Part shown: positions 1,308 through 36,900 of the stretch, in pieces
How positions within the stretch are numbered: the stretch's first letter is position 1
Layout: the number at the start of each line of letters is the position of its first letter
Source of the DNA: Naegleria gruberi
Lineage: Eukaryota
Strand: one strand, 5' to 3'
NCBI GenBank assembly: GCA_000004985.1
Contig: GG738906.1
DNA: 64,000 nucleotides
Notes under the pieces: generated by a model
Seen by the model: only the letters and a program-made list of their open reading frames with translations
What the model was told of the DNA's origin: nothing
Databases searched by the model: none
Position numbers and translations under genes: made by a program

Positions 1308-3218
1308 ATGTCAGTTGCCAAAAGCCCCACTAAAAAATTAAAATTTATTTGCTCTACTTCGTGTTCGGGACAAGAGCAAGAACGTGAACTTCTTGGACAC
1401 TATGAAAATGTAGAAACAAATGATAGAAGATTATTAAAAAAGAAGAGACAAGTTGATGAAACAATGGTACAACCATTGGAAGCTTCTCTACATCAACAAC
1501 AAACAGAAATAATTCTTGATGCTACATCAGCTGATCATCAAAATAATCAAACCGATACAATAATAGGAAATGATATTGGAAAGCCAACAAATTTCAAAAG
1601 AGGTATTCACATTGCCATTGATCATGAAAATGGAATTTTAAAAGGTTTGTTTAAAATAATAATCATCTCTCTTACACTTTCACCTCTTTGAAACCCTACT
1701 CTCTATATATACACACACAAACTAATCATATATTTCTATTTTATATATACACACTCTGTGCTCATATATAGGTGTTCCTGAACAATGGAGAGCCAAAGTT
1801 GGTGATGCACACTCATATGACAATTATCGTAAAATGACTGAAGATGAACCAATTGCACCTTATTTAATTCCCGATTTAGATCTAAATGCCGATTCCAAGA
1901 AGAAGAAGAATGATACAACAAGAACAACAACAACAGCACTTATTATTTCTGAACCACGTGAATTTACACATCACATTCATGTTGATTATAACCCTGAAAC
2001 TGGGTTTACTGGTTTACCAGATACTTGGAAAGAGATTTTAACTTCTGGTGTTAATGCAGGTCAAATTACAGTTGACGATGTTATGAATAATAAGGAAGAT
2101 GCATTAAGAATTGCAGAGGTAAGTTTAATTTCAACACGTAATTATATTATCATTTTTCAATGAATAATAATTTATTACACATATTTATTACAGTTTATTG
2201 ACAGTGGAATGACATTAGCACCTCTTAAAATTGATAAATTTCAAGGAGTCAAACAAAAAAGATTACCTGATTTTATTTCAATTGAAGATCCAACAAAGAT
2301 TTTTGAAAACATGATGCCAATAGATGAAGGATCAACAGGTGTTGTCATGATTGGAACTCACATCAAAACAGGATTGAAATGTGCATTGAAAAAAATTGAA
2401 ATTCAACAAACAACGAAATTGGAAGCTCTAGAAAATGAATTAACAATGATGGAATCATGTAAACATAATAATATTGTAGCATATATGGGAGCTTATCAAC
2501 ACAATAGTCATTTGTGGATTTCAATGGAACTTATGGACTGTGGGAAATTAACTGATCTCATCTATAAAACTATTCTAAGAGAGGATGAGATTGCATACGT
2601 TTTGAGAGAGACACTCAAAGCTTTGAAATATTTACACGACAATAACAAAATGCATAGAGATATTAAGAGTGATAACATTCTTGTTAACTCAAAAGGTGAA
2701 ATTAAATTAGCAGATTTTGGATTTTGTGTCGAGTTGAGTACCAAGAAGGAAAAACACAAGAGTACCGTAGGTACACCATTTTGGATGGTAAGTTATTCTC
2801 TTTTTTTTTCAAAATTCATACAAGTATCTATTAGGCTCCAGAAGGTTAGTTTCTTATTATTTATAACACTGTATCAAATTTCAAAAAAATAGTAATAAGA
2901 GCCATCGAGTATGGTCCTAATGTTGATATTTGGAGCTTGGGTATTATGGCTTTAGAAATGGCAGAAGGTGAGCCTCCTCTTATTGAACTTCCTGTTCTTA
3001 GGGCACTGTTTATAATTGCAACCCAAGGCCCACCAACATTAAAGGAACCACACAAATGGTCAGCCAATTTTAGTGACTTTTTATCAAGATGTTTGGTTAA
3101 GGATCCTATGGAGAGAGCATCATCCTCAGAATTATTGGAACACCCATTTTTAAAGATTGCTTGTGAACCACAAAAGATGGCCGACTTGATGAAAAAGTAT
3201 CACTTGTCAAAACACTAA
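1308..3218 (+). CDS. p21-activated kinase (PAK/STE20 family) Ser/Thr kinase with two tandem CRIB/PBD motifs. 5 exons: 1308..1644, 1772..2118, 2194..2787, 2835..2844 (micro-exon), 2893..3218.
   Basis: CRIB-like motifs [29 protein letters not shown] and [28 protein letters not shown]. Kinase motifs VAIKK-like [21 protein letters not shown] and GTPFWMAPE. APE is encoded by the 10-nt exon gctccagaag, flanked by ...tattag and gttagt... All junctions are GT-AG and in frame, and the downstream exon gives [29 protein letters not shown]. Confidence 0.85.
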
Positions 3219-3277: not shown

Positions 3278-6200
3278 TTACATATTTGCTTTCTTTGAGG
3301 ACACCAATCTTCCCTCTGACCAAACTTCGTCAAAGGACATGGAAAGTGTTTTTGAGTTTGGTGTTGCCAACCTTTTTTCTACATTATCTTTTGTTTCTAA
3401 TATTCCTACCCCGTGCTTTTTTCCTTTAAACCACTCCCCTCTATATTTAACTCCTGATGATAGCCCTTCAAAGAAGTAAATTCCCTTTCCTTGCTTTTGG
3501 TCGTTCACCCATTCACCATCATAAATATCACCATTGGCATAGGTAAAAGTTCCATGGCCTTGTCTCTTTCCGTCAACCACTTCTCCTTCATAGACACCTT
3601 CGAGATAAGTAATGATAGCCTTACCAGTTTGTTTATCCTTAGCCCACTCTCCTTCATACTTTGTAACACCATCTCCATAAGTTAAGGTACCTTCACCATG
3701 TCTACATCCTTTTTCGAATTCACCACAATATACAGAACCATCCCTAAAAGTAAATGTTCCCTTGCCATCTGGGAAATTATCAACAAAGTTGCCTTCATAC
3801 TTGTCACCAAGAGAAGTGTATTCAATTATTGCTTGTCCATTTTTTTTATCTTTCTCCCAATCACCAACGTGTGTGTAATTTGGAGTAAAATAATAGCCTT
3901 GCCCATGCCTATTATCGTCCAAGAGTTCCCCAGTATAGACAGATCCATCTGGATACTCTATTCTACCATAACCTGATTTTTTACCATTTACCCAAGAACC
4001 GTCATATGTTAGATCCGAACCTTTGTAAAAACCTTTACCATTAGGTTGACCTTTTCTGTCTAGTTCTCCACTATATTGTCCTTTTGCAAAATTAATATCT
4101 CCTCTAATAGGAGAGCTTGGTTCCTCCGCTATCTCATTTATCTGTGCTGCACTTTGATTGCCTTCTGTTGCACTATCATTTTCCTTATTAGCATCTGCTA
4201 ATATTTCTGCTTTTGGGGATTCTTTTTTTTCTGGTGTAATTGACTCAAGTTGATTAGTTTCATCATTAGAGGAGTTAGTTTGCAATGGTGTTAAATCTGT
4301 TGAGGCAGAAGGGGATAATGATTTTGGATATGTTATTTTTAAATTTGAATATTCTGGAGGAGGAGATAGTTGAGATTTTCTATTACTCTCCTCTTCGTCA
4401 TCATCCTTAATTAAAAGATTCCACTTTTTTGGAGATTCAAACGCTTTAAGAGTATCCTTGTTTTGTTTAAATCCGAGTTTGTGTTTTTTCTTTTTTTCTT
4501 GATTAAGTGATTTAAGTCTGGATGCAATAGGGGATTCGCTCCTTGAAAAATCTTCCTTAGTTAGTTTAGGGCTCTCATAAACAGGCATTTCAAGCCTGGT
4601 ATTAAGCATCTTTTCAAATGTGGTCTCCTCTTCGCTCTCTTCTGTTATTGGTGTATCTATAATATCACTACCATCAATATTATCAAAAGAAGTATCTGCA
4701 ATAATTTGTACAACGTCCTTAGGTCTTTCAGAAAAGACTGTTTGTGAAATATCATCTACTACATCATTTTCTTCCCCGTAACTAGATTCTGAAGAATCGG
4801 AATCATCCCCCGATGAGTTTGATGAAGACAAAATTGCTTTTGATGATTCCGAGTCTACTTCTTTTGCAACATTGGGTTTGCTTTCCTCTTGATTGGCATA
4901 ATGTGGAGGCTCATCAAATTCCTTAAGCGTTTTTTTGGAGGCTTCCATAGATGGTTCTTTTGCAGAGCGTTGTGCAGCACTATCAATGCCATTTGTTTTT
5001 TCTAGCTCAGTTGTGATTGGATAGAACGGTTCCTTTTTAGTTGCAGCATTAGAGATGTTTTGGATTTCGTTAGAGTGCAAGTTTTCATCATAGGTTTTGA
5101 GTTCCTCATCATCTGAAGAGGAGGAATCATTACTTGGTCCCTCATTGCTAAAGACAGAGTTTGAAATTTCGTCTTTTGGAGACTCATTCTTTGCTTCATT
5201 AGGATGTGTAAATTGTTCAATTGGAATAGACTTGGGAATGATTAAATCTTCATTCATTTTAGCATTTCTAGAATCACTTACATCCTTTACTTTTTCTAAA
5301 TAAATTGTTGGCTCTTCTTTATGTTCCTTGCTTGGCACATATGTAGGGCAATTTTCTGTTAATAAGGGTTTGTTTTCAATACTTGAGCGGTCTGAATTGA
5401 CATCTTCTTGTGTCTGGTTATTTTGTTCCTGAACAACTTGTTTGGCAGGGTTAGGAGTCCTAGGACTGGAAGCTTCTCCCTTCTCAATTTCAGTAATATC
5501 TTGCTGAGAAATAGAAGTAACTTTTTGTTTAGACTGATCAGGATTAATTACTGAGTGAGATTGAATCTCTTCCGTAGCTGATTGGTTCTCCATAGAGCTT
5601 GGTTGTTGTGTTTCATCAGTTTGTTCCGAATGTTGTTTAACATCCATCAGATGGTTATGTTCATTAATTGATGTGTTTTTGGTTGAAAGGTATGTTTCTT
5701 GGGCTTGGGTTGAATTAATTACTGGATCTTGTCTTGATTCCTTTCTTGGTTTTGAGTCATCGAACGACATGGAGGCAACTTCGTGGTGAATGATTTGTTT
5801 TTCATCCTCAGATAGGTCGCTTGGTAACTCTGACAATGAATCAAGATCTAAATTTTGCGGTATATGGTTTTCTGAGCTTGAAGACTTACTCTCAGGTTCT
5901 TGCAATGAAACTTCCACTACTGTGGAAACTTTGTTCTTCTCTTGCAGATGTTCATCTTCGTTAATTGATACAGGAGGATCTTGTTTGACTTGAGGAGAGG
6001 AAGAATGGCTTTTAGCCTCAACAATTTTTAAAGTCTTTTCTTTTAACTTTTCAAAATTAGTTTTTGGTTTTGGTTGTGGAATTTCAGGTTCTGAAACAAT
6101 AGGATGTCCTACCCTTTCAGTATCTTGAGCTAGTGGTTCGTTGCATATATTCTCTTCCTCTGTTGAATAATCGCTCTCAGATGTAGATTCGCCATTGATA

Positions 6201-7810
6201 GCATCTTCATCTGTGATAGATTCCGAAGAATCAGAGATGATATTTTTCTTTGAATCTGTTTGAACAACAGGAGCAGACTGAGTTCCAGAGGAGACTTTAG
6301 ATGAGTTTTGTTTTTCAACTGGTGGATCAGATTGTTCTGTAGGCGATCTAGATGTTGGTTTCGAATGGAGAGGGATTGGTTTCGTTTCCTCCTCAATCTC
6401 TTCTATTTTACATACAGTTTCCTCCTCTCTAACAGGTTCCTCATAAATAATCTCAATACCCTTATATTGTTCAGATCTTGATTTTCTAGGTTCTTCAATG
6501 GTAATTTCATCTTGGTTTTCGAAATAGGTTTCATCAATATATTTGGACATGTCATCACTTTGAGATTTTACTGTCTTTTCCTTGTGAGTTGGTTTTTTGG
6601 GAATGGATTCCTTCTTTTTTGATTTTTTAGGTTCCTTCTTATTCTTGTTATATTTCTTTTTGTTTTGAGCTTCAGCAATGCTAATTGTGCTTCTGTTGCT
6701 GGTGGTAGGCTCTACTTGAGCTGAAGTTTGTAAATCACTATTTTTCTTTCTATTCTTTTTCTTTTTTGGTTTTTCAAGAGATTCTGAAGCTACTCTCATT
6801 GGAAGGTTTGGGACATATTCATATCGTTGATTTATCCATTCATCATCAAGTTTTTCTTCGTCTTTTTTTGAGATAACTTCAACAATGATTTCGTCTTCAT
6901 CAGTGCTTGTCAATGTTTCTTCAGCAATAGTAACTGTTCCCTTATCTCTTATTTTTACAATTCTCCTGGGATACATATCATCAGATTCCACATTTGGTAT
7001 GTAAGATTCTGGTTCAACAGGATCTGTTTGAGTGCTTGCATCGATTTCAAAATCTGGAGTTTGAGTTTGAACCTCTCTTTCATTCAAAGTTTGTCTAACA
7101 AGAAAAACTTCTTGCGAGGTTCTGTCGTAAACTACATCTACACTTGGCGATTTGAATCCTTGTTTGATCGCCTCTTTCATCAATTCAACTTCCTTAGCAT
7201 CCCCATGAATACGCTTCCCAAACATATTATCAATGACAGGAGGAATTTCTGTTCCTCTGGAATAAAGCTTAGTTTTGGAATAAATGAGACTCGGGTTAAT
7301 ATCTATTGATGTTTTCACCATTGCGTTTTTTCCTTGTTCAGCAACTTGCTGTTTCTTTTTCCTTTCTTCATCTTCCTCTCTCTGTGATATATAACTCATA
7401 TATTCTTGGGAGTGAAAAGTTGGTTTATCGGTAGGGTGATGAGAATCTACAAGTGGTTTGTAGGAAGAACCAGAAGAGAAAAACTTTTCTTTTAGTGGTG
7501 ACGAAATGGAAGGAAGTGTAAGGGAGAGCTCGGCTTGTCTCGATCTTAACGACTCATCAAAGGTGCTCACGTTTGAGTTTGGTGTATTCAAAGAACTCTT
7601 TGGCAAACTTGTTTTTGAGCCAGTAGTACTAAAACTAGAAAAGGGAGAATTTAAAATCGAAGAAAATGAAGGTGATAAATCCAATCTAGGTGGAGCAAAA
7701 TAAGATGATTCCTTCTTTCTTAAAATGTCATCCCTATTGTTCGTTGACGAGGAAAACGTTGAAAAGGGGGACGAAAAAGAAGGAGAGGAGAACTGATAGT
7801 CTCTGCTCAT
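3278..7810 (-). CDS. MORN-repeat protein, 1510 aa. About 1100 aa of S/E/K-rich disordered N-terminus precede 8 or more C-terminal MORN repeats.
   Basis: Single long ORF. The C-terminus carries repeated YxGxWxxGxxxGxG units (YEGEWAKDKQTGKA, YDGEWVNDQKQGKG, YRGEWFKGKKHGVG and others). The N-terminus is low-complexity with KKKK/EEE runs. Confidence 0.8.
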   Translation of the reverse strand: MSRDYQFSSPSFSSPFSTFSSSTNNRDDILRKKESSYFAPPRLDLSPSFSSILNSPFSSFSTTGSKTSLPKSSLNTPNSNVSTFDESLRSRQAELSLTLPSISSPLKEKFFSSGSSYKPLVDSHHPTDKPTFHSQEYMSYISQREEDEERKKKQQVAEQGKNAMVKTSIDINPSLIYSKTKLYSRGTEIPPVIDNMFGKRIHGDAKEVELMKEAIKQGFKSPSVDVVYDRTSQEVFLVRQTLNEREVQTQTPDFEIDASTQTDPVEPESYIPNVESDDMYPRRIVKIRDKGTVTIAEETLTSTDEDEIIVEVISKKDEEKLDDEWINQRYEYVPNLPMRVASESLEKPKKKKNRKKNSDLQTSAQVEPTTSNRSTISIAEAQNKKKYNKNKKEPKKSKKKESIPKKPTHKEKTVKSQSDDMSKYIDETYFENQDEITIEEPRKSRSEQYKGIEIIYEEPVREEETVCKIEEIEEETKPIPLHSKPTSRSPTEQSDPPVEKQNSSKVSSGTQSAPVVQTDSKKNIISDSSESITDEDAINGESTSESDYSTEEENICNEPLAQDTERVGHPIVSEPEIPQPKPKTNFEKLKEKTLKIVEAKSHSSSPQVKQDPPVSINEDEHLQEKNKVSTVVEVSLQEPESKSSSSENHIPQNLDLDSLSELPSDLSEDEKQIIHHEVASMSFDDSKPRKESRQDPVINSTQAQETYLSTKNTSINEHNHLMDVKQHSEQTDETQQPSSMENQSATEEIQSHSVINPDQSKQKVTSISQQDITEIEKGEASSPRTPNPAKQVVQEQNNQTQEDVNSDRSSIENKPLLTENCPTYVPSKEHKEEPTIYLEKVKDVSDSRNAKMNEDLIIPKSIPIEQFTHPNEAKNESPKDEISNSVFSNEGPSNDSSSSDDEELKTYDENLHSNEIQNISNAATKKEPFYPITTELEKTNGIDSAAQRSAKEPSMEASKKTLKEFDEPPHYANQEESKPNVAKEVDSESSKAILSSSNSSGDDSDSSESSYGEENDVVDDISQTVFSERPKDVVQIIADTSFDNIDGSDIIDTPITEESEEETTFEKMLNTRLEMPVYESPKLTKEDFSRSESPIASRLKSLNQEKKKKHKLGFKQNKDTLKAFESPKKWNLLIKDDDEEESNRKSQLSPPPEYSNLKITYPKSLSPSASTDLTPLQTNSSNDETNQLESITPEKKESPKAEILADANKENDSATEGNQSAAQINEIAEEPSSPIRGDINFAKGQYSGELDRKGQPNGKGFYKGSDLTYDGSWVNGKKSGYGRIEYPDGSVYTGELLDDNRHGQGYYFTPNYTHVGDWEKDKKNGQAIIEYTSLGDKYEGNFVDNFPDGKGTFTFRDGSVYCGEFEKGCRHGEGTLTYGDGVTKYEGEWAKDKQTGKAIITYLEGVYEGEVVDGKRQGHGTFTYANGDIYDGEWVNDQKQGKGIYFFEGLSSGVKYRGEWFKGKKHGVGILETKDNVEKRLATPNSKTLSMSFDEVWSEGRLVSSKKANM

Positions 7811-18120: not shown

Positions 18121-18741
18121 GTGTGAATCATTAATAATATGAACTGAGTATTCCATAAAATAGAAGTTTGAAATGTCAGGATCTTCAGTATTAACATAGG
18201 AACAAGTCCAATGACACAGAAGAGGTATTCTTGAGAGCTGATTCTGGCATTGGATAAATTATCCTTCTTTCCAATACTTTAGCAGTCTGTAAAATAAAAA
18301 CAACAAACAATATATTTTGAAGACTTAAACATTGTGATATTTGAACTGTTGTCATCATTTGTTGATGAGGGATGAATCTTATTATCAGGTTGCTTATATA
18401 ACTTGAACTTCTTTGAGAGAAGTGGTTTGCAGTGATTGAGCTACCATCTTGAGAATTTTATTCTGTAAGTTTTTTGAAACTATTCGTGCTTGTTTCTATA
18501 TTTATTTGAACAATACACAAAATACACAAGGTAAACAGAATTAACTCCGCTAACAATTATCAAAAGTTGAGTAGAGTTTTAATATCACCTTACTCACTTT
18601 TGTACCATATTGTTTCTAACTTATTATAATACTCACAGGAAAGAAAATAACAACCTTTCCTTTAACACCAGATTAAACTTCAACAAAAATTTGTGCATCA
18701 AGTAAATCTAGAACATTTTGTGCTGCAAGCGAGCAAAAAAA

Positions 18742-21700
18742 ATGCCAAAAACTCCAACCTCTAAAAAGTCAAGCAGCAATAACGTGGCAACACCAAACAA
18801 CAATGGTAAACCATCAACAACAACAGGAAACCATGCCACTATAAGTAAAAAAATTACTTTCAAGGACCGATTATTTCAACATATTGAAAAATCTTTTACT
18901 CAACAACCACAACTCACACAAACACTCATCACTGAACTTCAACAACTTTTAACTTTGCCAAGTGTTACCAAAGAAGAAATTTTACACTTTTTCCTTTCCT
19001 TGTTTGATCAATGTGCTGAACAAACTCATTCAAAAAATCCAAGAAACAATTTTGCCGATTCAACCTTTTTTTCATCACTTTCAATAACATTACTTGGTAG
19101 TGTTGTTCCATCATCCATTCAACAAAATGTTAATTTATTCTCCCTTGATGAGTTGTACAAATTATTGAAACAAACACAACAACAATCTTCTTCCGGAGAT
19201 TTTTATGAACAAGTTAAAGTGAGACTCGTTTTCATTACAGGTTGTTTCTTTACAGGCTCTGTGTTTATGGGTCAAACTCAAAATGGGAAAAAACAAAAGT
19301 CTAATACTTTACTTTCAAAATTTGTTGAAGAAGTACAACAAGACTATCGTAGATTGTTAAAGAAAAAGAAGGAACAAGGAGAAAATGTTGAAGAAAAGAA
19401 GCAACAAGCAATCTTGTCTGTACTCTTTGCTGAAGCAATTGGTGCAATTTTAACCTGTATGAAACAAGCTTCTTTAAAGAAGAATTCATCAGTTACAAAG
19501 AAGGAATTGGACACTTTGTGTATGGAATTAGAAACCAGTTTCCTCCCAGAAATTGTGGACCGAACACCATCTCTTCCTGAATCTGATGACGATGACGAAG
19601 AAATGCAAGAAGGTGAGAAGAAAAAGACATTGAAAGATAGAGAAGTAGTTATGGATGGACCATTTTCGAGAAATATGCTCCAAAGCACATATACAGAACT
19701 TTCACTCTATCTTCTTCATTACTACATTCAAGAAAATAGTCCTTCCACTATGGTTGAACGTAATACTATTCTTACTGGTGGAAGATTTAGCTCTGAAGAT
19801 GAATCATCCCAATTTTCTGTGCTCCTTACCCGTTCCTTCATGGCATCTCTCATTGAACACATGAATGAATATCGCCATTTACCTATTCATTGCTTTACTA
19901 CACATTTCCTCAAACAATTGATTGAACCAATCATTCTCACTCATTTAAAGAAGAAGTCTAAAAAGACTAGCAATGTTGAGGATCAATTTGAACTTGCAAA
20001 GGAATTATTAGAATCATTCTTTATTCAACTCATTTCCCAAATGCAAGCACCTCCTTCACTTTTACAACAACCAAAGACTGGTAGCACAAGCGACATTATT
20101 GCTCAAATATCTTCTAGAAAAGCTTATTGGTGGGAAATTCAAGTCTTCCAATCTGTATTGGAATCATTGGATAAGGGATCCGATAAGACTGTTATGAATT
20201 TCATTCTTGATAATATTTTACCTTTGGGTGATATTGAAGGTGTTGTTAATCCATTCCTTGTTATGTGGGGAGCTGTTTTGAATGAATGTAAACAATTCCT
20301 CAAGAATGTTCCAACGAGCGGTTCATCAAGTCCAACAACAGGTAATACCCTTCTCAATTCTCTCTTAATGTTAGTTGTTAAAAAACAAGAGCAAAAGAAG
20401 AGAAAGAGAATTGCTGAAGCTGAAGAAAACAACACTGTCCCAAATGTGGAAACTGAAGCATTGAAGAATGAATACAAGATGAAACAAGTAAGAGAAGAGT
20501 TTTTCCAATATCAAATATGGTTAGGTACTCAATTGAGACCTAGAATAATGAGTTTAACATCATTAACTCCATCTCTTTCAAAGTACTTACTTTCCAGAGA
20601 ATCTGTTTTGTGCAAGGTTTCAAATACTTTGGGAACTTACACAGCTGAAAAACTCTCAACCTTTACTATTGAAGCAGATAAAAAGAAGAGAAAAGCTCAA
20701 GAAGACGATGAGGATATTATTTCTTTATCTCGTAGAACCTCTCGTTCACTTTTAAGAGGTCTGTCCTCATGGTTGAGAGACTCTATCAAACATAGAGTGG
20801 GTACAATTACTAGATCAATTCTTTTAATCTTGTCTCAATATGACGAGCAAATGGAACGATTCATCGCCAAGAAAAATCAGATGGATTTGGTACATGATAC
20901 CTTACTTCAAACCGAAGAAAAGGAAGAAGAATGGCTCAATGAAGAAGCACTCAGATTTTTATTGTCATGTTTCCCAACAAATGTCAGAGTTTATGATAAG
21001 AGTGAAGATTCTTTCACTACTGAAGATCTCACAATTCTTCTCAAAAAGTTATTTGAAGTGGGTTCATTAATGAACTATGTTAGCGATAAGCCACTCTTGA
21101 CAAAGAAATCAGACGAAGAGAGAGAAACTCTCATTAGACACAGATCATACTATGGAAAGGATATTGTTGATTTATCCTCTAATTTGGTAAAACTGATAAT
21201 TAATAATTTGGCAGTTCAAGAATTTAACTGGATGAGACAACAATTCCACACCAAGGAAGTCAAAGAAACTGAAAAACAACTAACAAGCTCAAAGAGCTGG
21301 AGTAATGAACTCTATTCTTATGCTATCAAGTTATTTGGTCTTGAAGAAAAGAGTAAACAAGAGAAGAGAAAGAGAATTTTTGAAACTAAGGATAACAACT
21401 CGAACTTTAAAAAACTTCAATCTCTCTTGGGATCTATTCAATCTGATTTGGACAAGTGCAGTATCGGAAGCTCATCAAAAGCTTGTATGGATTGGTCAAT
21501 CCTTTCATCTCTTGCTATTTATATTAGGCAAGTATTGGTAACTAGTTTCTTCGATCCTTGGATTATTGAATCTGAAGCTCAGGGTCAACCTATGGTTGAA
21601 GACTTGGCTAGAGTCTATGGAACCATTTCTAAACTTTCTTCCTCTGATCTTATTCTCATTTGCCAAAAGAAGGAAGATTCAATGCAAGATGAATCTATTC

Positions 21701-23748
21701 AACCTATGGAAGTGTTGACTGATGTATTGGTTGTAAATATCAACGTTGAACCTAATCTCACTCTTGCTTCTCGTATTGTATTCATGACTATTGCTAAATA
21801 CCTCAATGAAGAATGCTTGGATATTTTATTCAATTATTTAATGAAAGATGGCGAAGTGCAAGATATTGAGGATGAGAGCGACGAAGAGGAAGAGGAAGAA
21901 GAGGATGACGAAAGCGATGATGAAAAAACTGATACCCTTGATGAAGAACCATTAGAAAACGAAACTGAAGGATCAGTCATCATAAGAACTGATGAAGAGG
22001 AAGAAGAGGGTGGTATTGACCTTAACAATCCAGGTGATGTTTCCAAAGTATTGGAGATGCTCAAAGCACGTAATGAAGCTAAAAAGAAAAAGTCTGAAGA
22101 AAAACAGCAAAAATTGAAGCGTATGGAATTTGCCATGAATATTGTACAAGTATTGGAGGGATTATGTATTAAGAGCATTCCTCAACCAGTACTCATTCTC
22201 CTCTTATTCAAATCAACTCAATATATCCTTGAAAAGATTTGGTCCCAAAATGATGAAGAAGTAGCAGAACATTTAAAGAAGGCAACAGGATATGCTGTTA
22301 ATACTATCTTTAATAAGGTTCTTCAATTAGTCCAAATCTTAACCAGAGAATATCGTCAACAATTACTGACAGATTCAAACTCAAGCATATGTGCTATAGT
22401 TTTCGAACAAGAGGCAAAGGATGCATTGTTTGAAACAGCTAGAGTTTTTGCTTTAGAGTTTTCCAAGTATGGTATCTTGTTATCCTCTCTTCAAGGTAAA
22501 ACCAAAAAGTCTATCACCAATAAGAATTCTCCAAGTTTGAATATGGAACAATCTGCTCACATGTTGAGTATCTTTATTAGACTGATGTATGTATTAAAGA
22601 AGAGTGACAACACAGAGATGGACTCTCAAATTGAAAAGATGCTTTTTGGTTCTTCCGATAACGACGAAGAAATGGGAACTTCTATGGAATTATTAATTTC
22701 TTTGGCTCAATCAGATTCACACATTGCCAGTACTTTGGGTAGTAAGATTATAATGTTTGCTTTGGATAAGGTTATTAACTCTGGTGATAAGAAATATCGT
22801 GATAGAAAATCAGGTCGTGTTCTTGCCCAACAACCATATCAAAGAGAAATGTACGATAGAATTTTAGGAAGCCTAGTTAAACCATTTGTATTGTCATTAT
22901 CTGGAGAAAATAAGACATCTTCAACTGCTAATGCTGTTCTATTAATGGTTTTAGAATCATATGTGAAAGATATTTGTCCAGCTATGAAACTTATCAAATC
23001 AACTTCAATTAAGGCTAAAAATCTCAAGAAGAGTGCTAGTGTACTTTTAACCGTTTTGGAGTATTTAGCAAATCATTCATCAATGCAAAAAGATTTTACC
23101 GAGGTTCAATTCAGAGAATTATTAACATGTTTCTACTTTGTATTCCATCAACAAGAAAAGAAACAAGGTGAAGAAAAGAAGGAATCAATTTGGACTCAAG
23201 CGTTACCACTGTTTGAAGAATGGAGAAAGAGATGGAATTTAGGCTCAACTCTCGTCCAGGATTTTATTACATCAAACCAAGATTTGGACAAGTCTGCTAT
23301 TGAAATTATGAAACAAAGAAGAGAGGTTTTCAAAAAGGAAAGAAAGGAACGAGTGAAACAGTCAACCGAGCAAACTCCTGAAGAAAACAAGAAGAAGAGA
23401 AAGAGAAATGAAAAGAAGGAGTTAAATGAACCAGTAATCGAGAAGAAGGAAGAGGTCAAGAAGGAAAAGCCAATAGAAGAAGCTCCACAAAAGAAGAGAA
23501 AACAAACTCCATCAGCTTTTGTTTTTGAAACTGATGAAAAACCAGTCCAAACAATTGAAGAAATGAAAAAGAAGAGTGGTGATATTCCTGCTTCTAAAAA
23601 GGCTACAGCCACCTCTGTCAATCAAACAGATAAGAAGTCTTCCAACAAACAAGAATCTACTCTTTTCAACGAAACAGCTTCAAGTATTGCCAAGAAGAAT
23701 ACAAAGAAACCAACCAAAACAGCAACACAAAAGAAATCCAAACAATAA
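18742..23748 (+). CDS. Large (1668 aa) nuclear/nucleolar-type helical protein with a central poly-acidic tract and a K-rich C-terminal tail. Family unresolved; it possibly resembles DNA polymerase phi/MYBBP1A.
   Basis: Continuous ORF whose first ATG is at 18742. Acidic block DIEDESDEEEEEEEDDESDDEKTD...EEEEEGG, many KKRK NLS-like runs, and a lysine-rich C-terminus. Confidence 0.7.
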   Translation: MPKTPTSKKSSSNNVATPNNNGKPSTTTGNHATISKKITFKDRLFQHIEKSFTQQPQLTQTLITELQQLLTLPSVTKEEILHFFLSLFDQCAEQTHSKNPRNNFADSTFFSSLSITLLGSVVPSSIQQNVNLFSLDELYKLLKQTQQQSSSGDFYEQVKVRLVFITGCFFTGSVFMGQTQNGKKQKSNTLLSKFVEEVQQDYRRLLKKKKEQGENVEEKKQQAILSVLFAEAIGAILTCMKQASLKKNSSVTKKELDTLCMELETSFLPEIVDRTPSLPESDDDDEEMQEGEKKKTLKDREVVMDGPFSRNMLQSTYTELSLYLLHYYIQENSPSTMVERNTILTGGRFSSEDESSQFSVLLTRSFMASLIEHMNEYRHLPIHCFTTHFLKQLIEPIILTHLKKKSKKTSNVEDQFELAKELLESFFIQLISQMQAPPSLLQQPKTGSTSDIIAQISSRKAYWWEIQVFQSVLESLDKGSDKTVMNFILDNILPLGDIEGVVNPFLVMWGAVLNECKQFLKNVPTSGSSSPTTGNTLLNSLLMLVVKKQEQKKRKRIAEAEENNTVPNVETEALKNEYKMKQVREEFFQYQIWLGTQLRPRIMSLTSLTPSLSKYLLSRESVLCKVSNTLGTYTAEKLSTFTIEADKKKRKAQEDDEDIISLSRRTSRSLLRGLSSWLRDSIKHRVGTITRSILLILSQYDEQMERFIAKKNQMDLVHDTLLQTEEKEEEWLNEEALRFLLSCFPTNVRVYDKSEDSFTTEDLTILLKKLFEVGSLMNYVSDKPLLTKKSDEERETLIRHRSYYGKDIVDLSSNLVKLIINNLAVQEFNWMRQQFHTKEVKETEKQLTSSKSWSNELYSYAIKLFGLEEKSKQEKRKRIFETKDNNSNFKKLQSLLGSIQSDLDKCSIGSSSKACMDWSILSSLAIYIRQVLVTSFFDPWIIESEAQGQPMVEDLARVYGTISKLSSSDLILICQKKEDSMQDESIQPMEVLTDVLVVNINVEPNLTLASRIVFMTIAKYLNEECLDILFNYLMKDGEVQDIEDESDEEEEEEEDDESDDEKTDTLDEEPLENETEGSVIIRTDEEEEEGGIDLNNPGDVSKVLEMLKARNEAKKKKSEEKQQKLKRMEFAMNIVQVLEGLCIKSIPQPVLILLLFKSTQYILEKIWSQNDEEVAEHLKKATGYAVNTIFNKVLQLVQILTREYRQQLLTDSNSSICAIVFEQEAKDALFETARVFALEFSKYGILLSSLQGKTKKSITNKNSPSLNMEQSAHMLSIFIRLMYVLKKSDNTEMDSQIEKMLFGSSDNDEEMGTSMELLISLAQSDSHIASTLGSKIIMFALDKVINSGDKKYRDRKSGRVLAQQPYQREMYDRILGSLVKPFVLSLSGENKTSSTANAVLLMVLESYVKDICPAMKLIKSTSIKAKNLKKSASVLLTVLEYLANHSSMQKDFTEVQFRELLTCFYFVFHQQEKKQGEEKKESIWTQALPLFEEWRKRWNLGSTLVQDFITSNQDLDKSAIEIMKQRREVFKKERKERVKQSTEQTPEENKKKRKRNEKKELNEPVIEKKEEVKKEKPIEEAPQKKRKQTPSAFVFETDEKPVQTIEEMKKKSGDIPASKKATATSVNQTDKKSSNKQESTLFNETASSIAKKNTKKPTKTATQKKSKQ

Positions 23749-27647: not shown

Positions 27648-27930
27648 TTTTTAAATAATTAATTTTTTAAATATTAATTTTTTAATGACCTTGGATCTCC
27701 TACCAATAGAACAAAAACGTCTCCTTTCGTTGATTAGATTGATAAAAAAAAGTAATGGTACAACAACCCTCTTCCTTTGATAGAACATTTAACGCTTGTG
27801 GAATTTTGTGTGTGACACAAACTAGCCGCCCAAAAACAGGGGCACCTTTTACTGTTCAAGTCAAAATTTATTCAAAAAGAAAATCCAAACACCACGTAAC
27901 TATTTTTTGAAGGAGTGTTTAGGTGGCAAG

Positions 27931-30900
27931 ATGAAGCAATATTTGTTAAATGTGGCGCTTTTGTTATTAATTTTCTGTGTTTGTGTTTCTTCTTCGGTTG
28001 CTACAAGAAGCAGTACAGAGATTTGTGGATTATTAAGAAGTTTTTCATCGTTCAAGCCTAATGCAGATCCAGATTACTTGGTCGGATTAGATGATTTATC
28101 TTGGGTGAGCACAGCTTGCCAATCCTTAAATACCAACGATACGGAGTGGACTTTCAGTACAGGATGGTTGGAATCTAAAACCATCAAGCCAACTTTTCTG
28201 CCTTCCCAACTCTCTACAATTAACACCAATATATTAAGAAACACTACATTTTCCTACAATATGGAAAATGATACCATCTATTTGGAGGTTACCTTTTCGA
28301 TCAATTCAATTGTGAAGGGAAAAGTTGATGTTATCAATGTGGATGCAGAAGAATTGATCTATACATTTAAGAAATCTACCAGGGATTACATCGATTTTTC
28401 TTCCCTTTCCTTTTCCCCAATTTCTTGGGAGGGAAGCTTAACTTCAAATTCTTGCAACGCTTCAAATATTAATTCCTTCACGAGAACTATATGTTTTTTC
28501 GATTCAAACCTCTTTGATGGCTCTAAGCCTGTTATTTTGGCCATAGGTAATTCTACTAATGATGTTGAGAATGGACTCAGCCAAGAAATTACTTCAAGTT
28601 TCATGTATTTGGCGACTCAATTTGGTGTCAACACACACTTTACTCAAATATCTCCATATAGTTTTAGTTCACCTTCGGTGAGAGGGGTTTTTTTGGATAG
28701 CTCCATGATGTTGAGGCACTTTACAAATGCTACCTACATTCCAAAATCAAAACTTTTTGATTATGAGAAAAACGTCTTCTTTTCAAATCAAGGAGAACTT
28801 TATCAATTATCTGTAGAATGTATAGCAGAAAACTGTTTAGGATCAACCATTGAAGCTCTTAAAGAACTTTTAGAAGAGTCAACTAGAGCTACAAACTGCT
28901 CTATTTCATTCGAAAGAGCTAAATCAAGTTTGACAGCAGCTATTTTTATTACTGATACATCCATCCACCCTCTTGCTTACTCTGGATATAGTGAAGGATT
29001 CGCATTTTGTAGAAATATCAATGATAGTGCGGTTAGTGTTAGAATCGCTGTTAGGGCAACACCAGTAAATGAAATATGGCCTGTCAAACTATATACCCAA
29101 AACGCAAAGAGTGCTTCTACCTTATTACGTTCTATACCTCTATCTTTGAATGGGTATATTTCAGGAAAAATACATTATAATGGTGATTTGTACTATTCTT
29201 ATCCATCAAACATTTATTCCAGTTTGCCTAATAGTGGAGTTTTTATAAGAGATTTGTCCATCAATACCAAATTGATTCATAACGTTATGGGAAAGGTTAG
29301 AAATTCATTATTTACAAACGTATCTGTTCTTGATCAATATGTACTTGGTTTAATGAGTGAAACAAATGTAGATTCAATAATTGCAGATTATTCGAGTGGC
29401 ACAATGTTTCCAACCTTTATTGGATTTTTTAAACATTTTTCTGAGAAATATTATGATAGTATCAGATTCTTGATTAAGAATGACACTGAGTCAACTGTTG
29501 AAGTTTCCATAATTTGCTCCAACAAAGAGTCAATTAATATTACTGATTATGGCATTTCTTCCATAAATTCTCAATTAGAAATCTTTAGAACCAAGGTGTT
29601 AGAAAAATATCCAGAATTATCAAACCTTAAAACCAATACTATTTCCGAAGTTACCCTACTTTCAAAACAACTCTTTACTGGTGCTGTTACTTCCATGATC
29701 CACATTACTGGCTTTTCAACAGAAGATGTATCAGTTTTTGTTGGTTCTCAATTGGATTATTCTGCATCTTTATATTTGAAGGCAAACTTTGAGCAAAGCT
29801 TATTTTCGGAAATTTACGCCTCCCATGATTACAAGACTAATAGTAGTGCGATAAAAGGAAAAATCACAAGAAATGGAGAAGCATTTTTTGTTGGATTGAG
29901 TGAAGGAAATGTAATAGTGGGATCCTCCCCTGCAGGTGTTTCTTTCATGAAGTATTCTGACGCAATTTCTATTCTTTCTAGTAGAGTAGATTCTATTCCT
30001 AACATTAACAGAACAATACCCCTCATTTCAAACGTTCTAACTCTAGTAACGGACAAGTTCAGTATTGAAAATATGCTAATCGTTTTAGCAGCCAAATTGA
30101 GATCTACACAACAAGCTAATACTATTGAAGTTTCTGCAGTAATAGAAGAATTTTTATACTCATTCTGCTTTGATTATGGTTGTAGTGGTTCTATCACAGC
30201 CAATGTTTCTCCAAAAGATGGTTCTAATTTGGGAATGTCACTGTCTATTGTGAAAATGCAACATCTGCACATTGTTGAAAATAATTTGGAGATGTTGCCA
30301 ATAACTCCTACAGTAGGTGTATCTTCATTAATTAGAATGGATACGTTTATCCATTTATCCTTAATTAATCCTTCATTCGAGTCATTCACTATTAAAGGGA
30401 AAGGAGAATTAGATAATTGGGCAGTTCCCTTCAGATATAATATGCAATCAGGAAGAGTTTTACAAAGTTTTATATCATTTGATATTAATATGCCATCTTA
30501 TGTTAATTTTGAAATTATTATGGGAATAGAAATTGAACATAACAATGAATCAATCTTTTTCAATTTTAAATCAGGAAATTTGCTGTTATCAAATAACATT
30601 CCATCTATTCAATTTTCAGGTGATGGCCAAGATAGCTTTGTTCCACCTCAAAATGTGATGTACACGCTTAAGGATGTGTTTAAAGTTTTAACACCAATCA
30701 AGAATGGTCCTCTTAATTTTAAAGTTCCGTTTTTAACTGACGATTTCAACCAGTTTGTTGAATGGGATGGTTATGTTGATACACTCACAGACATGTTACT
30801 TTATCCTAAAATGTTGAGAGGGTCAGACCCACTAGTTTCATTTACTTTAGCAGAAGAGCAGACCCTACTAGATGATTTGAATATCACTATTAATGGTATT

Positions 30901-33900
30901 ATATATCACTGTGCTGGATTTAGTATTGATAACAATTCCACAAATACCACTATTAATAGTTTTAACAGAGGTTTGGAAAAGTGTAATTTAGGCTCTATTT
31001 TATGTGCCAAAGAGTTTAAAAATGAAGTGTCTGATTTTTTAATTGGTATTTTCCCTTTCAATCATTATGGAATCTATCAAATGGAACTAAAGTTTTCTTC
31101 CAATATAAGGGCACCTCAATTTTTTGAATACCAAGTTCCATTTTATCCAATATTCTCTTCATGGAGTGAATTAAGTTGGTTACTCCACATTACCACAAAT
31201 GAGGTTCTCAAAAAACCAGTTGTTTCTACAGTAGATAGGAAATTCCTTCCTATCCCAGAAGAGATGCAAAATGTTTACCCAGCTCAATTTAAAACAATAT
31301 CAGTAGATTTTACATTGAAAAATAATGTTATGAAACCTTCTACATTTGTAAAATTTTTGGAGGACTCTGGAAGTAAGATTTCTTTAGAAACTACTGGTAC
31401 AGCCAATGTGCACAATAATATCCAATTTAACGGAAAGTATGGTTACGTTTTTTCCATTCCTGGTTTATATAATATTACACTACTTACTAACGCTGATTCT
31501 AATTTTACAATTTATAAGAACATTACAGAGTTAGGTTCTTCATTCTCAATGTCCATTAAGGCACAATTAAGGACAGCCACTGAAACAAAGACAGTAACAT
31601 CTAATTTACATATTAGTCTTCCAATTGGAAGAAATTTCTCAGATATCATGATGAATTGGTTACCTGAGCAAGTAGACTACGATATCAGACCAATGTTTTT
31701 TGTTGATGTTAATACAGGTAGCGAAATTTTAGGGACACAAGATCAAATTCAAATAACCCTTAGAAGAGTTATGCTAGAAACTGACAAATTCCTTGTACCT
31801 CTATCATTATTTATTTATGATAGCAATGTACCAATTATTTCAATGACATCACAAATACCTCCAACATCTTTACCAATTTCTTCAGAAATTTCTATCACTT
31901 CACTGCTGAATTTAACTTCTAATGACGATCTTTCATTAAAATCTGGTTCATTGGGTTTATTTGGAGTGAAACCTACTTCAGAGATGGATGGGTCTGGAAT
32001 TATCACACTTGCTTTGAACTTACCTGATGAACACGTTCCTTTGTACAAGTTAATGAGGGCAACTACTGACATTTCATTATTATTTGATCTCTTTGACATT
32101 ACCATAGCAACAGATAACAGTCTTTCTGTACAAAATCCAACAATGAATATCAACAGTTCAATTCCAAGGTTGAACACTATGTCAGTAGTTTCAAAAAAGA
32201 GTTGGAAAATCAACTCTCAAAGCATTCTTGATAATATTGCTTCTGTAATCCACAATCTAGAGGCTAAATTTGATTCTGTTGAGGATACTGTAAAAGAAAC
32301 ATATTATGGACTTTCCCAAACAAACGCAAGTTCATTATGTTCTTTCCTTGACGAAATTATGAAATCAACCAATGACCTTGGAAGGAAATCTGTCCTTCAA
32401 ACACCGTTACCATTCGTAAAGAAGACATTTAAACATTTACTTGAAAGGGCTATAGTTGATAAGTTCCAGTCAGCAAAACAAAGCGTTTGCAATGGTATTG
32501 TTGAATTTTCTTTGGAAAAGTTTTGCGATTTATTAGAGCATAGATGGGGTCAAAAAGTTTGCTACGATTCTCTAATAGCTGACAAGAGTTTTATTGTAAC
32601 CTTAAAGCTTATGAACTATGAGTTAGTTTCGAATGAAGAGCTTTTTGTTGAACCAAATATTTTCGGTACTACCAAAATACCTGCCATAATGGGAATGGAA
32701 GATTCTGTTTCACTTAATTCTAATGCAAATTTTGAAATTAGAATTAAGTGTTCTTGGAAAGATGGCTTTGTGTTTGATATCCTTGATGGAACAACATTTT
32801 ATATTAGTTCTGACTTTGCTGTAAATGGAAATATGAAAGCTTCTCTAGGGCCTATTAATTTAATGCTTGGAAGTGCAAACGTTTTTGTTGGTAAACCAGC
32901 AGTTCTTTCAGCAACACTTGTAAATGGGCTTATTGATCTTTCGCTCACTGGCAATGCTGGTTTCAATTCATTGATATCATTTTTCGATCTATCATCTTGC
33001 CAATTATCAATCGATATACCTGATATAGCCAAATTTTTGGGTGGTAGTTCAAATTCTCTAGTGATAGACCAACATACATGTAAAGGAGGGTCTTTTGTAA
33101 ATTCTGTTACACAAATATTGAAAGACCATACCTTACTAGATTTCTTCAAAGATCCTAGTACTTTCCTTAATCAATTCCAAAATCATTTTTCTGACTTGTT
33201 AAAGAAAATCTTTGATGGACCAAATGGTTTATTGAATAATGTTGTAGTACCAGTTGTGGATAAAGAAATCCAAAAGATATTACAAAAAGAATTAGGGTCA
33301 ATAATTGGCCCAGAAATGACCAATGATTTGACAAATTCTATCACAGTTATGGTAAATAGTGTAATCTCTGGAAAGTCAGTCACTGGAGATGAGCTTACTA
33401 GAGTTATTTTAACAGAATTTACTCAAATAATGTGTCAGAAGTTTAAACCTGTTGAATGTCCAAAAGTACCAGATATCCACAGTGCCGAATATGTTTGGGG
33501 ATTTGAGCTCAAGAGGGTACTGAAACATGGAGTTGCCAATCTTGGTTTTGATATGGGTTCCTCTGCAAAAGGTACTCACTTAACTTCTGAGGTTGAATTA
33601 GATTTTGAAATGGACTATAAACTCAGATTTAATTTGGTATTTTCAAAATCAAATGGTGCTAGTATTACTTTCAATGAAGGTTATGTCTTGGAAGGAATTA
33701 CTGACTTGAAATTGGATGGAACTCAAAAAGTTGAGGGTGAGATTGGTTTTTTAGGAGCAGAAATTATTTTAGATCCTACAAGTTCCTTCCACGCAGAGTT
33801 TGGTGTAGATAATCAGTGGAAAGCATTCATGAAAGCAAACTCAATTTTAACAGGAAAAGCAGAAATGGGATTTGCTGGAATTATTACTAAATTATTGAAA

Positions 33901-36900
33901 AATGTTGAAGACCCTCTTGATGCTCTTCCTCATTTTGAATCAATTATTGAATTCAAATGGAATTGGGAAATGGGAACTTCATCATCCACTACTCCTGAAT
34001 TCTCTCTATCAGAACCTAGTTTATGTATTGGTACTCTTTTATCTAGAATGGCAGAAGGGGTAAGAAAACAAGCAGAAAAGGTTATTGGAAATTTAGATAA
34101 GATTGTTGGTCCTGCTTCATTCCTTACAAAGGATGTGGGAGTACTATCTAGAATATTTGGTAGAGAAATGTCTATTGCAGAGCTAGGAATATTTTTGGCT
34201 AGACACTATTGTTCTGGTGAATGTGATGCGGTTAATGTTGAGGAATTAATTAGTGCCTACAAAAAATTGCACATTCTAATGAACAAGCTTCAAGTTGTCC
34301 GTAACTTTTTATCAACAATGAATGGGTGTGGAATTAGAAGAAAATTCAGCAAATTCGTTGTTGATTTGCAAAAATCGGACGATCCCATTATTCATGATGT
34401 TCCTGACCAAGCATTGATTTTTGAACAAGATATTCCTCCAAGTATGAAGCCAGAAATTGAACAAACATTTTCTATGATTCAATCAAGAACTTACAACTTA
34501 CATATTCCTTTATTTGAGGAACCAAAGAAAATACCATCAGCTCTTATTGGCTTAATGCTAGGAAAAGACTTCAATTTAGTTGAAATTGAAATGCCAAAAA
34601 TGGTACTTTCATTTTCAGCTCATTTTGGATTCCCTATTTGGGCATTCCCTTACGTAGAACTTTACATTCAAGCTTCTGCTGGTCTTGTTGTAGATTTACC
34701 AACAATTGCTTATACTACTAAAGGTATACGAGATGCTGTGCAAACAAAGAAAATAACTAATTTATTTAAAGGTGTTGGAATGATCACTAGAAAACCAGAC
34801 GGATCTCCTATTTGGATTGTATCTGGTTATGTTAGATTAACAGGTGGAGTTTCTGTCAGTGTGGTAAGTTGTAATTAATTTGTGCTCTATTTTTTTACTT
34901 ACAATATTTAGTTTATTTTCAGTGGAAATGCATATGCATTCTTGGAAGCAGAGGCAAGAGTTACTGTATTAGATATAAATGGAAATCAAGTGGTTACTTT
35001 TGATGAATTGTTCTATTTAATTCAAAAGAATGGAATTCAAAACACCGTAACATTTGAAATGCAATTATCTGCAGGATTTGGATTTAATATCAAAGCTTGC
35101 ATTAAAGTTTGGTTTGCAAAGAAATGTTGGACCATTGTAAGCCAAGAGATTAAGGTTCCAATTTTCCCTAAACTTACTTTTGGAGGCAAAAGAATTGCAC
35201 CAGTAGCAGATAGAAATAGTAATTTGAATTTAGATTATGTGAATGAATTTGGTTCATCAAATTCTGACAAACCAGTTTTCATAGTTTATCCTTCAACGAG
35301 TAATGCCGATAGACACACTATTGGCTTCAGTCCATCCAGCAGTATGACAACAAATCTTCCACCACTTTCTTTTCCTAATCAAGGAACAAATTCTGTTGCT
35401 TTTTATGGCAATGCAGGAGGAAAACCTTTCGAAATTAAATCTTTAGGTTATCAAGGGCTTGTTACAGTTCCACCTCTAAACACTGTAACATCCAGAATCC
35501 CATGTGATTCTTATAGAAATACTGATTCTTTTACCATATCCCCAACCTTCATTACACCAAACAATTATTTAGGACTACAATACACACCTGGTATGTGTTC
35601 TCAAGCAATTCTAGAGAATGTAAAATATGGAACAAAGTTTAACTTGCAAGGAACACCATGTCATGTTGTACTAAATGCAGCTTACAAGTCACAAATAGAA
35701 ATTGGTACTGATTCTCAAAATTACAAAGGACCAGTTACAATTAATGGACCTGGAGAACTGACATTTAGTGTTCCTTCTCCAAAATATCATGTTACATCAT
35801 CATCTATTTCAATTGATGGTTCAAGTAATTTACTTAGACTTGAAAATGATATGCCATCTATCACAGTAGTAGGTGACAACCAACCAACAAGTTTTTCTTT
35901 CAGTAATATTGTCAAAACATCAGCTATTACTGCTCTAGGTAGTGAGTCAGATGATGAATTCTTGGTATCTGATGTTACATCAGTTTATGGAGGTTTAATG
36001 TTGAATGGTGGTAGTGGTATCAATAGAGGTACTTTTATTATTCCTGCTTCTAGTGATAATATGAATATTATGATCACTAGCTCATCATTATCTATTGACA
36101 ACACCAATACAATCAGATGGGCAAATCTTGACCACAGAAGCTATAGAGTTTTGAACAGAAATAATCATACAAATATCAAGGTTTCATATTTCTCTCCAGA
36201 TGATTTTAATTCATTCCATGTGGAGACTGAAAATAATCCTACAGGTGTTATTTACCATAATATCTCTTCTTGTTCAACACGAAATGAAATTAGACTTGAT
36301 CTCAAAGGAGGAGGTGAACAAGTGGTGTTACTTTCTCAAAATGGTGAATTCTCTCCTCTTCAATGTTCAATGTACATCCAAGGTGTAGATGGACAAAATA
36401 GTGGATATACTATTCTTATTGACGCAACAAACGAAAAAAGAAATCTCAGATATTCAATAGAAAATGGAAGAGTTACAGTGGATGATCCTGATAACACTGA
36501 TTTTATGACAAACCTTTATATACGTCAGATCTCAAGAGTTAAACTCATTGTTTCAGAAAAGCAATACTCTGATATAAAATTGGTACAAGGAGCTCCAAAC
36601 ACTGAATACCATTTCCAATTTGCGGAAAATACTACAGATTATGGAGTTAAAAAGCCAACTTTGACTTTGTGTAACTTACCTTCAAAATCAACAACTCTTG
36701 TTACTGGAAGTGCTGATATCAATCTAGGTCCAAAAACAGGCATTTGTAGTAATAAGTTTATTAATCCTTTGGAAAATTTGAGAAGTTTGATTGTGGTTGC
36801 TGGCCAAAATTCAAAGGTCACAATGAATTCTGGAAATGATGGGTCACAACACTTTAATATGACCGATAGATGTTTATTTGCCACAGATGACAGAGGTGTT

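Follow-up and report, generated by a model that had tools for sequence, protein, structure and literature searches.

PAK-family kinases are textbook effectors of Rho GTPases, and to our knowledge every scheme of their regulation shows a single CRIB, a motif with the consensus ISxPxxFxHxxHVG. Here we describe a PAK gene of Naegleria gruberi, at positions 1308-3218 of a 64,000-nucleotide stretch of contig GG738906.1 (GenBank assembly GCA_000004985.1; the whole stretch is called the window below), whose product carries two CRIB-type modules in tandem, CRIB1 and CRIB2, ahead of its kinase domain. The two modules are conserved but belong to different classes, and a PAK1-like autoinhibitory region follows only the second.

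The closest described systems are human PAK1-3 (structures 1F3M and 9M41), with which the N. gruberi protein shares a two-His CRIB, the GxPxxW hairpin, a switch region, a basic run upstream, an activation-loop Thr and a kinase domain closest to that of PAK1. Unlike them, it carries a further CRIB-type module at its N-terminus, which has a conserved extension of its own and no switch. Departure from the His-x-x-His consensus has a precedent in the semi-CRIB of Par6, which still engages Cdc42. However, the Par6 motif is missing both His and needs an adjoining PDZ domain, whereas CRIB1 keeps its second His (H101) and a PAK-type hairpin, and no PDZ domain was matched by Pfam in the N. gruberi protein, which is thus not of the Par6 semi-CRIB type.

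Two CRIBs have also been reported within single proteins. Dictyostelium GnrC (Q551I6), a gelsolin relative, is that organism's unique protein with two consecutive CRIBs according to a 2022 review of protozoan CRIB proteins, the coverage of which leaves Naegleria outside (PMC8847673); it resembles the N. gruberi protein in having two CRIBs in succession at the N-terminus of one polypeptide, but it is an actin-binding gelsolin homologue and not a kinase. Coronin 7 (PMC4585930) and PLD2 (PMC3520882) are likewise reported to contain two CRIBs, but these lie far apart in unrelated domains, are weakly conserved and, in the coronin, prefer GDP-Rac; they are not PBD-type tandem modules. In engineered double-CRIB Cdc42/Rac sensors, two CRIBs boost membrane recruitment to the active GTPase (PMC10234108), which is the avidity logic that we propose for CRIB1 and CRIB2, but the sensors are artificial, consist of identical copies and have no catalytic output, and two WASP CRIBs put directly in tandem were pre-localised at the membrane. 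Full-text literature searches gave no description of a natural PAK with two CRIBs, nor of such a module in animal, yeast or Dictyostelium PAKs. The layout is catalogued insofar as domain databases show both matches automatically, but it appears to have been neither discussed nor tested.

The gene and the parts of its product on which our argument depends are as follows (aa, amino acids).

1308-3218, + strand: the whole PAK gene, with ATG at 1308, stop codon TAA at 3216-3218 and a product of 537 aa
1308-1644, 1772-2118, 2194-2787, 2835-2844 and 2893-3218, + strand: its five exons, separated by four introns, every one GT..AG
1575-1644, + strand: exon-1 part of CRIB1 (aa 90-113), including the first base of Gly113
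1772-1788, + strand: exon-2 part of CRIB1, the rest of Gly113 and VPEQW (aa 113-118), which form the PAK-type GxPxxW extension
1789-1872, + strand: conserved extension after CRIB1 (aa 119-146), with a short helix, a strand and a hydrophobic-P-x-x-L-x-P motif
1873-1938, + strand: variable linker (aa 147-168), with a polybasic KKKK at aa 155-158 (1897-1908), upstream of CRIB2
1945-2028, + strand: CRIB2 (aa 171-198), with both His, H179 and H182
2029-2217, + strand: inhibitory-switch-like helical region (aa 199-236), after CRIB2 and split by intron 2
2308-3152, + strand: protein kinase domain (aa 267-516), encoded by exons 3-5

A regular expression for the CRIB matched just CRIB1 and CRIB2 in the six-frame translation of the 64 kilobases (kb), with 0 matches in 200 shuffles. 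Scanned alone against Pfam PBD (PF00786; 59 positions, curated cut-off 21.3 bits), CRIB1 scores 31.4 bits (E 2.5e-7, profile positions 1-31) and CRIB2 scores 47.6 bits (E 2.1e-12, positions 2-57), while the whole protein scores 71 bits over two stretches. From these separate scores and the shuffles, the tandem pair is real and far beyond chance. A sequence-only reading of this DNA had proposed a PAK kinase with two tandem CRIB/PBD motifs, and both peptides that it named lie where it placed them, in the translations of 1575-1643 and 1774-2031; the profile score that it suggested for checking the first motif bears it out. Its overall span of 1575-2031 does contain the motifs but takes in one codon too many, as CRIB2 ends at 2028.

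CRIB1 has Arg98 at the position of the first canonical His, a substitution that the same reading had picked out, and retains the second, His101. Because R98 replaces the first His, CRIB1 is a CRIB variant and not a consensus CRIB: it misses the strict consensus at one defining residue yet passes the PBD profile. CRIB2 has both conserved His and differs from the consensus only at the final G, which is D here; it also aligns with PAK1, PAK4 and PAK6 over the CRIB regions seen in their solved complexes with GTPases.

The two modules differ further in what follows them. Residues 170-237, which comprise CRIB2 and the switch region, align with residues 6-70 of 1F3M_A, the PAK1 autoinhibitory fragment (E 3.4e-5), and CRIB2 is therefore a full PBD with CRIB, beta-hairpin and inhibitory-switch helices. 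CRIB1 corresponds only to the first half of a PBD and ends, after CRIB and hairpin, with the beginning of the first helix. The group I PAK arrangement, in which the switch comes directly after the CRIB, is thus found for CRIB2 and not for CRIB1, whose match stops at position 31 of 59. One correction to the sequence-only reading follows: the modules cannot be taken as equivalent copies, as the PAK1-type switch follows CRIB2 only and CRIB1 represents a distinct, shorter class. In place of a switch, CRIB1 is followed by the extension listed above, the hydrophobic-P-x-x-L-x-P motif of which reads IAPYLIP here and LPSHLAP, INPNLVP and similar in alignments with other taxa. Upstream of CRIB2 lies the KKKK run, which we liken to the PAK1 basic region; Lys-rich runs occur at this linker position in many family members in the alignments.

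The kinase domain scores 225 bits with Pfam Pkinase. Among solved structures, the human PAK1 kinase domains come nearest (E 1.8e-81), ahead of PAK3, PAK2, PAK4-6 and then MST, as expected for the PAK-family kinase that the earlier reading had called. The catalytic motifs of a PAK-type kinase, read from the translation, are intact (K294, HRD, DFG and APE), and the activation-loop Ser-Thr is present, the Thr being the counterpart of the one phosphorylated in PAK1. By the sequence of its kinase domain, CRIB2 and switch region, we assign the protein to the PAK family, group I type.

Orthologues retain the same architecture. A whole-protein search with end-to-end alignment identified N. lovaniensis C9374_008282 (71% identity over 97% of the length), and Willaertia magna has a further orthologue, ABK040_010790 (P0195; 67% identity); both keep both motifs, as the sequence-only reading would have it, and both have Arg at the first-His position of CRIB1. 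In the Willaertia protein, CRIB2 reads ITRPKDFTRHIHV, with Arg replacing the first His in this module too; His-to-Arg is therefore tolerated even in a switch-bearing module. A second N. lovaniensis protein, C9374_013725 (P0003), was considered as the orthologue and rejected, as it shows no synteny and the full-length search gave C9374_008282; it is a paralogue, one of three in Naegleria and Willaertia with the two-CRIB layout (C9374_006146, C9374_013725 and ABK040_011502).

Between N. gruberi and N. lovaniensis, identity is 23% in the N-terminus, 78% in CRIB1, 82% in the 28 residues after CRIB1, 9% in the linker, 80% in CRIB2, 71% in the switch region and 86% in the kinase domain. CRIB1 and its extension are therefore kept as strongly as parts known to matter, and their conservation between flanks at 9-23% argues for purifying selection on CRIB1. 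This bears directly on the idea that CRIB1 is a functionless, decaying relic of an internal duplication. Such a relic might well give a partial PBD match (positions 1-31) and lack one consensus His, as CRIB1 does, but it would hardly keep 78-82% identity between Naegleria species when neighbouring linkers have fallen to 9-23%, nor be retained with a class-specific signature in many deeply separated lineages. We consider decay very unlikely.

As the sequence-only reading had noticed, CRIB1 crosses the junction of exons 1 and 2: intron 1 (1645-1771) is a phase-1 GT..AG intron that splits the codon of Gly113. The tandem arrangement could thus in principle be an artefact of the gene model, with the CRIB1 exon belonging to another transcript or intron 1 not being removed as we propose, and it fits this idea that neither homology search returned an N. 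gruberi-labelled protein with the PAK sequence. However, the junction is canonical and in frame, and the annotated N. lovaniensis and Willaertia proteins run continuously through ...LKGVPEQW.... Transcriptome open reading frames (ORFs) of Pharyngomonas, Percolomonas, Stygamoeba and Rhodelphis also hold both CRIBs in one ORF. In a contig from a further Naegleria-like organism (L001), exon 1 ends in ...GVLKG and is followed by an intron and then VPEQW, so that the intron position is the same. An artefact of this kind is extremely unlikely.

How common is the layout? When a profile of the two-CRIB region was searched against 1.84 billion representative proteins, about 45 of the best 150 representatives matched across both CRIBs, and a motif scan gave 47 proteins with exactly two CRIBs, 37-140 aa apart and typically 57-105. 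The spacing in the N. gruberi PAK is 81 aa, which places it in this tandem-CRIB branch, delimited here by a CRIB1-type module that lies 57-140 aa ahead of a CRIB2-type one and by a PAK kinase domain behind them. An independent list of the 101 nearest clusters was ranked on the whole protein, the kinase domain dominating the score; two CRIB sites are present in 40 of these PAK clusters and a single site in 55, which is of CRIB2 type in 54 of the 55. Carriers of two CRIBs include Heterolobosea (Naegleria, Willaertia, Pharyngomonas and Percolomonas), the jakobid Andalucia godoyi, the fornicates Kipferlia and Chilomastix, the Amoebozoa Stygamoeba and Vannella, Rhodelphis, the stramenopile Nannochloropsis and early-diverging fungi of the Mucoromycota/Glomeromycota (Lichtheimia, Umbelopsis, Acaulospora and Entrophospora). 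The closest dictyostelid matches are kinases with a PH domain and a single CRIB. The two-CRIB PAK is therefore a conserved variant of a well-known family, common outside model organisms, and not a one-gene oddity. The remark in the sequence-only reading that tandem modules are unusual in a PAK holds for the studied animal, yeast and Dictyostelium enzymes but not more broadly, given the 40 two-site clusters and the many lineages of the carriers named above.

Several of the proteins recovered vary the theme. One tandem-CRIB PAK (P0039; EukProt transcriptome GILJ01003155) has at its N-terminus an additional Cys-rich stretch similar to a FYVE-type zinc finger, ...RRHHCRRCGGVFC..., the sequence of which suggests that lipid targeting was added to the two-CRIB core. 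Three proteins from JGI metagenome contigs (P0012, P0017 and P0123) are kinase-less and consist of about 4-8 head-to-tail PBD-like repeats with a period of about 68-72 aa, each unit of the form ISxPxNxxHxFSI...GxP with a helical tail behind it; they resemble multivalent binders of Rho GTPases.

CRIB1 and CRIB2 can be told apart across this range. In leave-one-out scoring with hidden Markov models (HMMs), CRIB1 was assigned to its own class in 48 of 48 cases and CRIB2 in 48 of 48, a separation somewhat inflated by a few close relatives in the set. The N. gruberi CRIB1 scores 58.7 bits with the CRIB1 HMM versus 34.9 with the CRIB2 HMM, and its CRIB2 scores 54.1 with the CRIB2 HMM versus 51.8 with the CRIB1 HMM. 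Among the 47 two-motif proteins, a list biased by a query profile that itself has R/Q at the first-His position, CRIB1 has R there in 23 proteins, H in 14, Q in 5 and E in 3, and CRIB2 has H there in 42; the kinase-ranked list shows the same two classes. Because class-specific features are common to distant lineages, one old duplication is favoured over many recent ones; the basis on which we favour a single origin of CRIB1 is the separation of the classes by HMM and the motif shared in the linker.

Structural predictions were made with AlphaFold2 for P0003, the N. lovaniensis paralogue with the two-CRIB layout and 45% identity, both at full length and for residues 1-185. The full-length model has a mean predicted local distance difference test score (pLDDT) of 77.5. 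In it, the CRIB1 hairpin, a short helix and a further strand (residues 41-70) are modelled at pLDDT 82-85, the linker at below 50, and the CRIB2 hairpin and three helices at 81-89. Its best match in the PDB is autoinhibited full-length PAK2 (9M41_B), over 366 columns compared with about 289 for kinase-only entries; given this match, the model has the switch region docked onto the kinase in the manner of group I PAKs. The best match of residues 1-185 is 1F3M_A (59 columns, root-mean-square deviation 2.5 A, template modelling (TM) score 0.69), with the three helices superposed. Both CRIB cores (I-S-x-P...H-V) are low-confidence in the models. CRIB strands become ordered only upon a GTPase, and the low-confidence cores fit this.

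In residues 1-185, where the kinase is absent, the CRIB1 module reaches a pLDDT of about 91, which indicates that its fold is independent of the kinase domain; the predicted TM score (pTM) of this fragment is 0.35, and its CRIB1 and CRIB2 modules have no confident mutual placement. These models bear on the possibility that CRIB1 acts within the molecule or mimics a dimer contact, by pairing with the CRIB2/switch hairpin or a surface of the regulatory region like the stabilising partner strand of the autoinhibited PAK1 dimer, or as a decoy that tunes the switch. A module that is confidently folded and not disordered, in which the hairpin and GxPxxW are strictly conserved but about 70% of CRIB1s have another residue for the first His, is what such a role would lead one to expect. 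Single-chain Rac/Cdc42 biosensors have reportedly been built in which a further PBD, unable to bind, provides the autoinhibition. However, a fold that forms without the kinase and shows no confident packing against CRIB2 speaks against it, and the GTPase-contacting core, I-[SG]-x-P-x-x-F, is as conserved in CRIB1 as in CRIB2, which would be needless in a pure packing element. We regard an intramolecular role as unlikely, and of the two modes of regulation raised by the sequence-only reading, dual GTPase input through the two predicted modules is favoured over an intramolecular decoy.

On balance, we think it probable that CRIB2 and the switch helices form an autoinhibitor released by Rac/Cdc42 and that CRIB1 is an extra, always exposed GTPase dock, which either recruits and retains the kinase or makes a second GTPase a requirement. 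In the resting state, the module of polybasic run, CRIB2 and switch helices would fold onto the kinase domain; a GTP-bound Rac/Cdc42-type GTPase on CRIB2 would then unfold the switch and free the kinase for activation-loop phosphorylation. The CRIB1 module has the elements of a minimal GTPase-binding fragment, and because it contains no inhibitory switch it would not be sequestered in the autoinhibited state. The dock might thus recruit the kinase to, or hold it on, a membrane rich in Rac-GTP through avidity. Alternatively, a second GTPase, possibly a different paralogue, might be demanded at CRIB1 before or alongside the opening of CRIB2. We infer GTPase binding by CRIB1, and an order in which recruitment would precede opening, from sequence features: the GTPase-contacting core is conserved, a PAK-type hairpin is present and there is no inhibitory function that would hide the module. 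Two published observations also count in favour of docking. The N. gruberi repertoire comprises at least 23 Rho GTPases (PMC8305917), and in engineered sensors a second CRIB makes relocation to active Cdc42 more efficient (PMC10234108).

Several considerations weigh against a CRIB1 dock. First, the structure models are those of a 45%-identical paralogue and not of the N. gruberi protein itself. Second, and this is the main doubt, human PAK1 requires the first His of its CRIB to bind Rac/Cdc42, as seen with the H83L mutant. Finally, this His is R, Q or E in the CRIB1 of 31 of the 47 proteins in the profile-biased list. With its first His replaced, CRIB1 could have a low affinity or a different partner, although Arg or Gln at this position could, as a conjecture, still pair with the switch-I Asp.

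A different partner would mean that CRIB1 binds GDP-Rac, another small GTPase or another protein in place of GTP-loaded Rac/Cdc42, with His-to-Arg/Gln as the mark of a changed specificity. Substitution at a GTPase-contacting position is indeed systematic and spans lineages, and Dictyostelium coronin CRIBs are reported to prefer GDP-Rac (PMC4585930; PMC8305917). On the other hand, apart from this position CRIB1 and its PAK-type extension follow the canonical pattern and are recognised by the PBD profile, and about 30% of CRIB1s keep both His, so the substitution is not obligatory for a CRIB1 module. We therefore think a change of partner quite improbable, and continue to prefer a dock for a GTP-loaded Rac/Cdc42-type GTPase.

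The practical gain at this locus is a corrected gene model, which includes a very short exon.

2835-2844, + strand: microexon of 10 nucleotides (nt), GCTCCAGAAG, which encodes Ala-Pro-Glu of the invariant APE motif and the first base of Val430

This microexon sits between introns of 47 nt and 48 nt (stretch 2788-2892) and is required for the reading frame, as exon 5 would otherwise start with TAA; the peptide that it restores is identical to that of the N. lovaniensis orthologue. Intron 2 (2119-2193) interrupts the inhibitory-switch-like region. In contig L001, WMAPEV is encoded within one exon, with an intron farther upstream, after KST. Intron positions therefore vary among close relatives. 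The public model of the paralogue C9374_013725 (L003, about 7300-7500; PYSW02000073.1) reads GTPYWMAEVIRG, with the Pro of the invariant APE missing; this looks as though a splice site was misplaced, or a tiny exon overlooked, just where N. gruberi has its microexon.

The surroundings are AT-rich eukaryotic DNA of about 33% G+C across the window. Five ORFs in the neighbourhood match N. gruberi proteins of a 286-kb scaffold exactly, including EFC38571.1, EFC38620.1, EFC38619.1 and EFC38562.1; a dictyostelid origin of the DNA is therefore rejected. The sole 100% match to the PAK gene itself is a prokaryote-style ORF on a metagenome contig (P0004; ENA ERZ929261). The PAK gene may be absent from the N. 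gruberi reference protein set or mis-modelled there. Upstream, at 1-732 on the - strand, lies an intron-containing gene for an EF-hand protein with the canonical loop DLDGNGAIDFVE, which is syntenic in contig L001. Downstream, at 3278-7810 on the - strand, is a 1510-aa ORF whose C-terminal part contains MORN repeats (Pfam MORN, 126 bits). Long ORFs of 1676, 2323 and 2311 aa lie within 18718-23748 and 27907-41877 on the + strand, the first of which (1676 aa) has no Pfam match at E<=1e-5.

The tandem-CRIB PAK is moderately interesting for understanding the evolution of Rho-GTPase signalling and its logic, and is a natural counterpart of the multi-CRIB biosensors that exploit avidity. A broader proposal, that the layout is ancestral and dates to the last eukaryotic common ancestor, that CRIB1 was lost in animals, Dikarya and dictyostelids, and that CRIB1 was tuned to a different Rho paralogue to make these kinases two-GTPase coincidence detectors, is one that we raise only tentatively and regard as doubtful. 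If CRIB1 does bind a GTPase, a large proportion of the PAKs in protists and early fungi would read two GTPase molecules and not one. That would change models of Rac/Cdc42 signalling in amoeboid cells, including relatives of the pathogen N. fowleri, and would bear on the form of the ancestral eukaryotic PAK.

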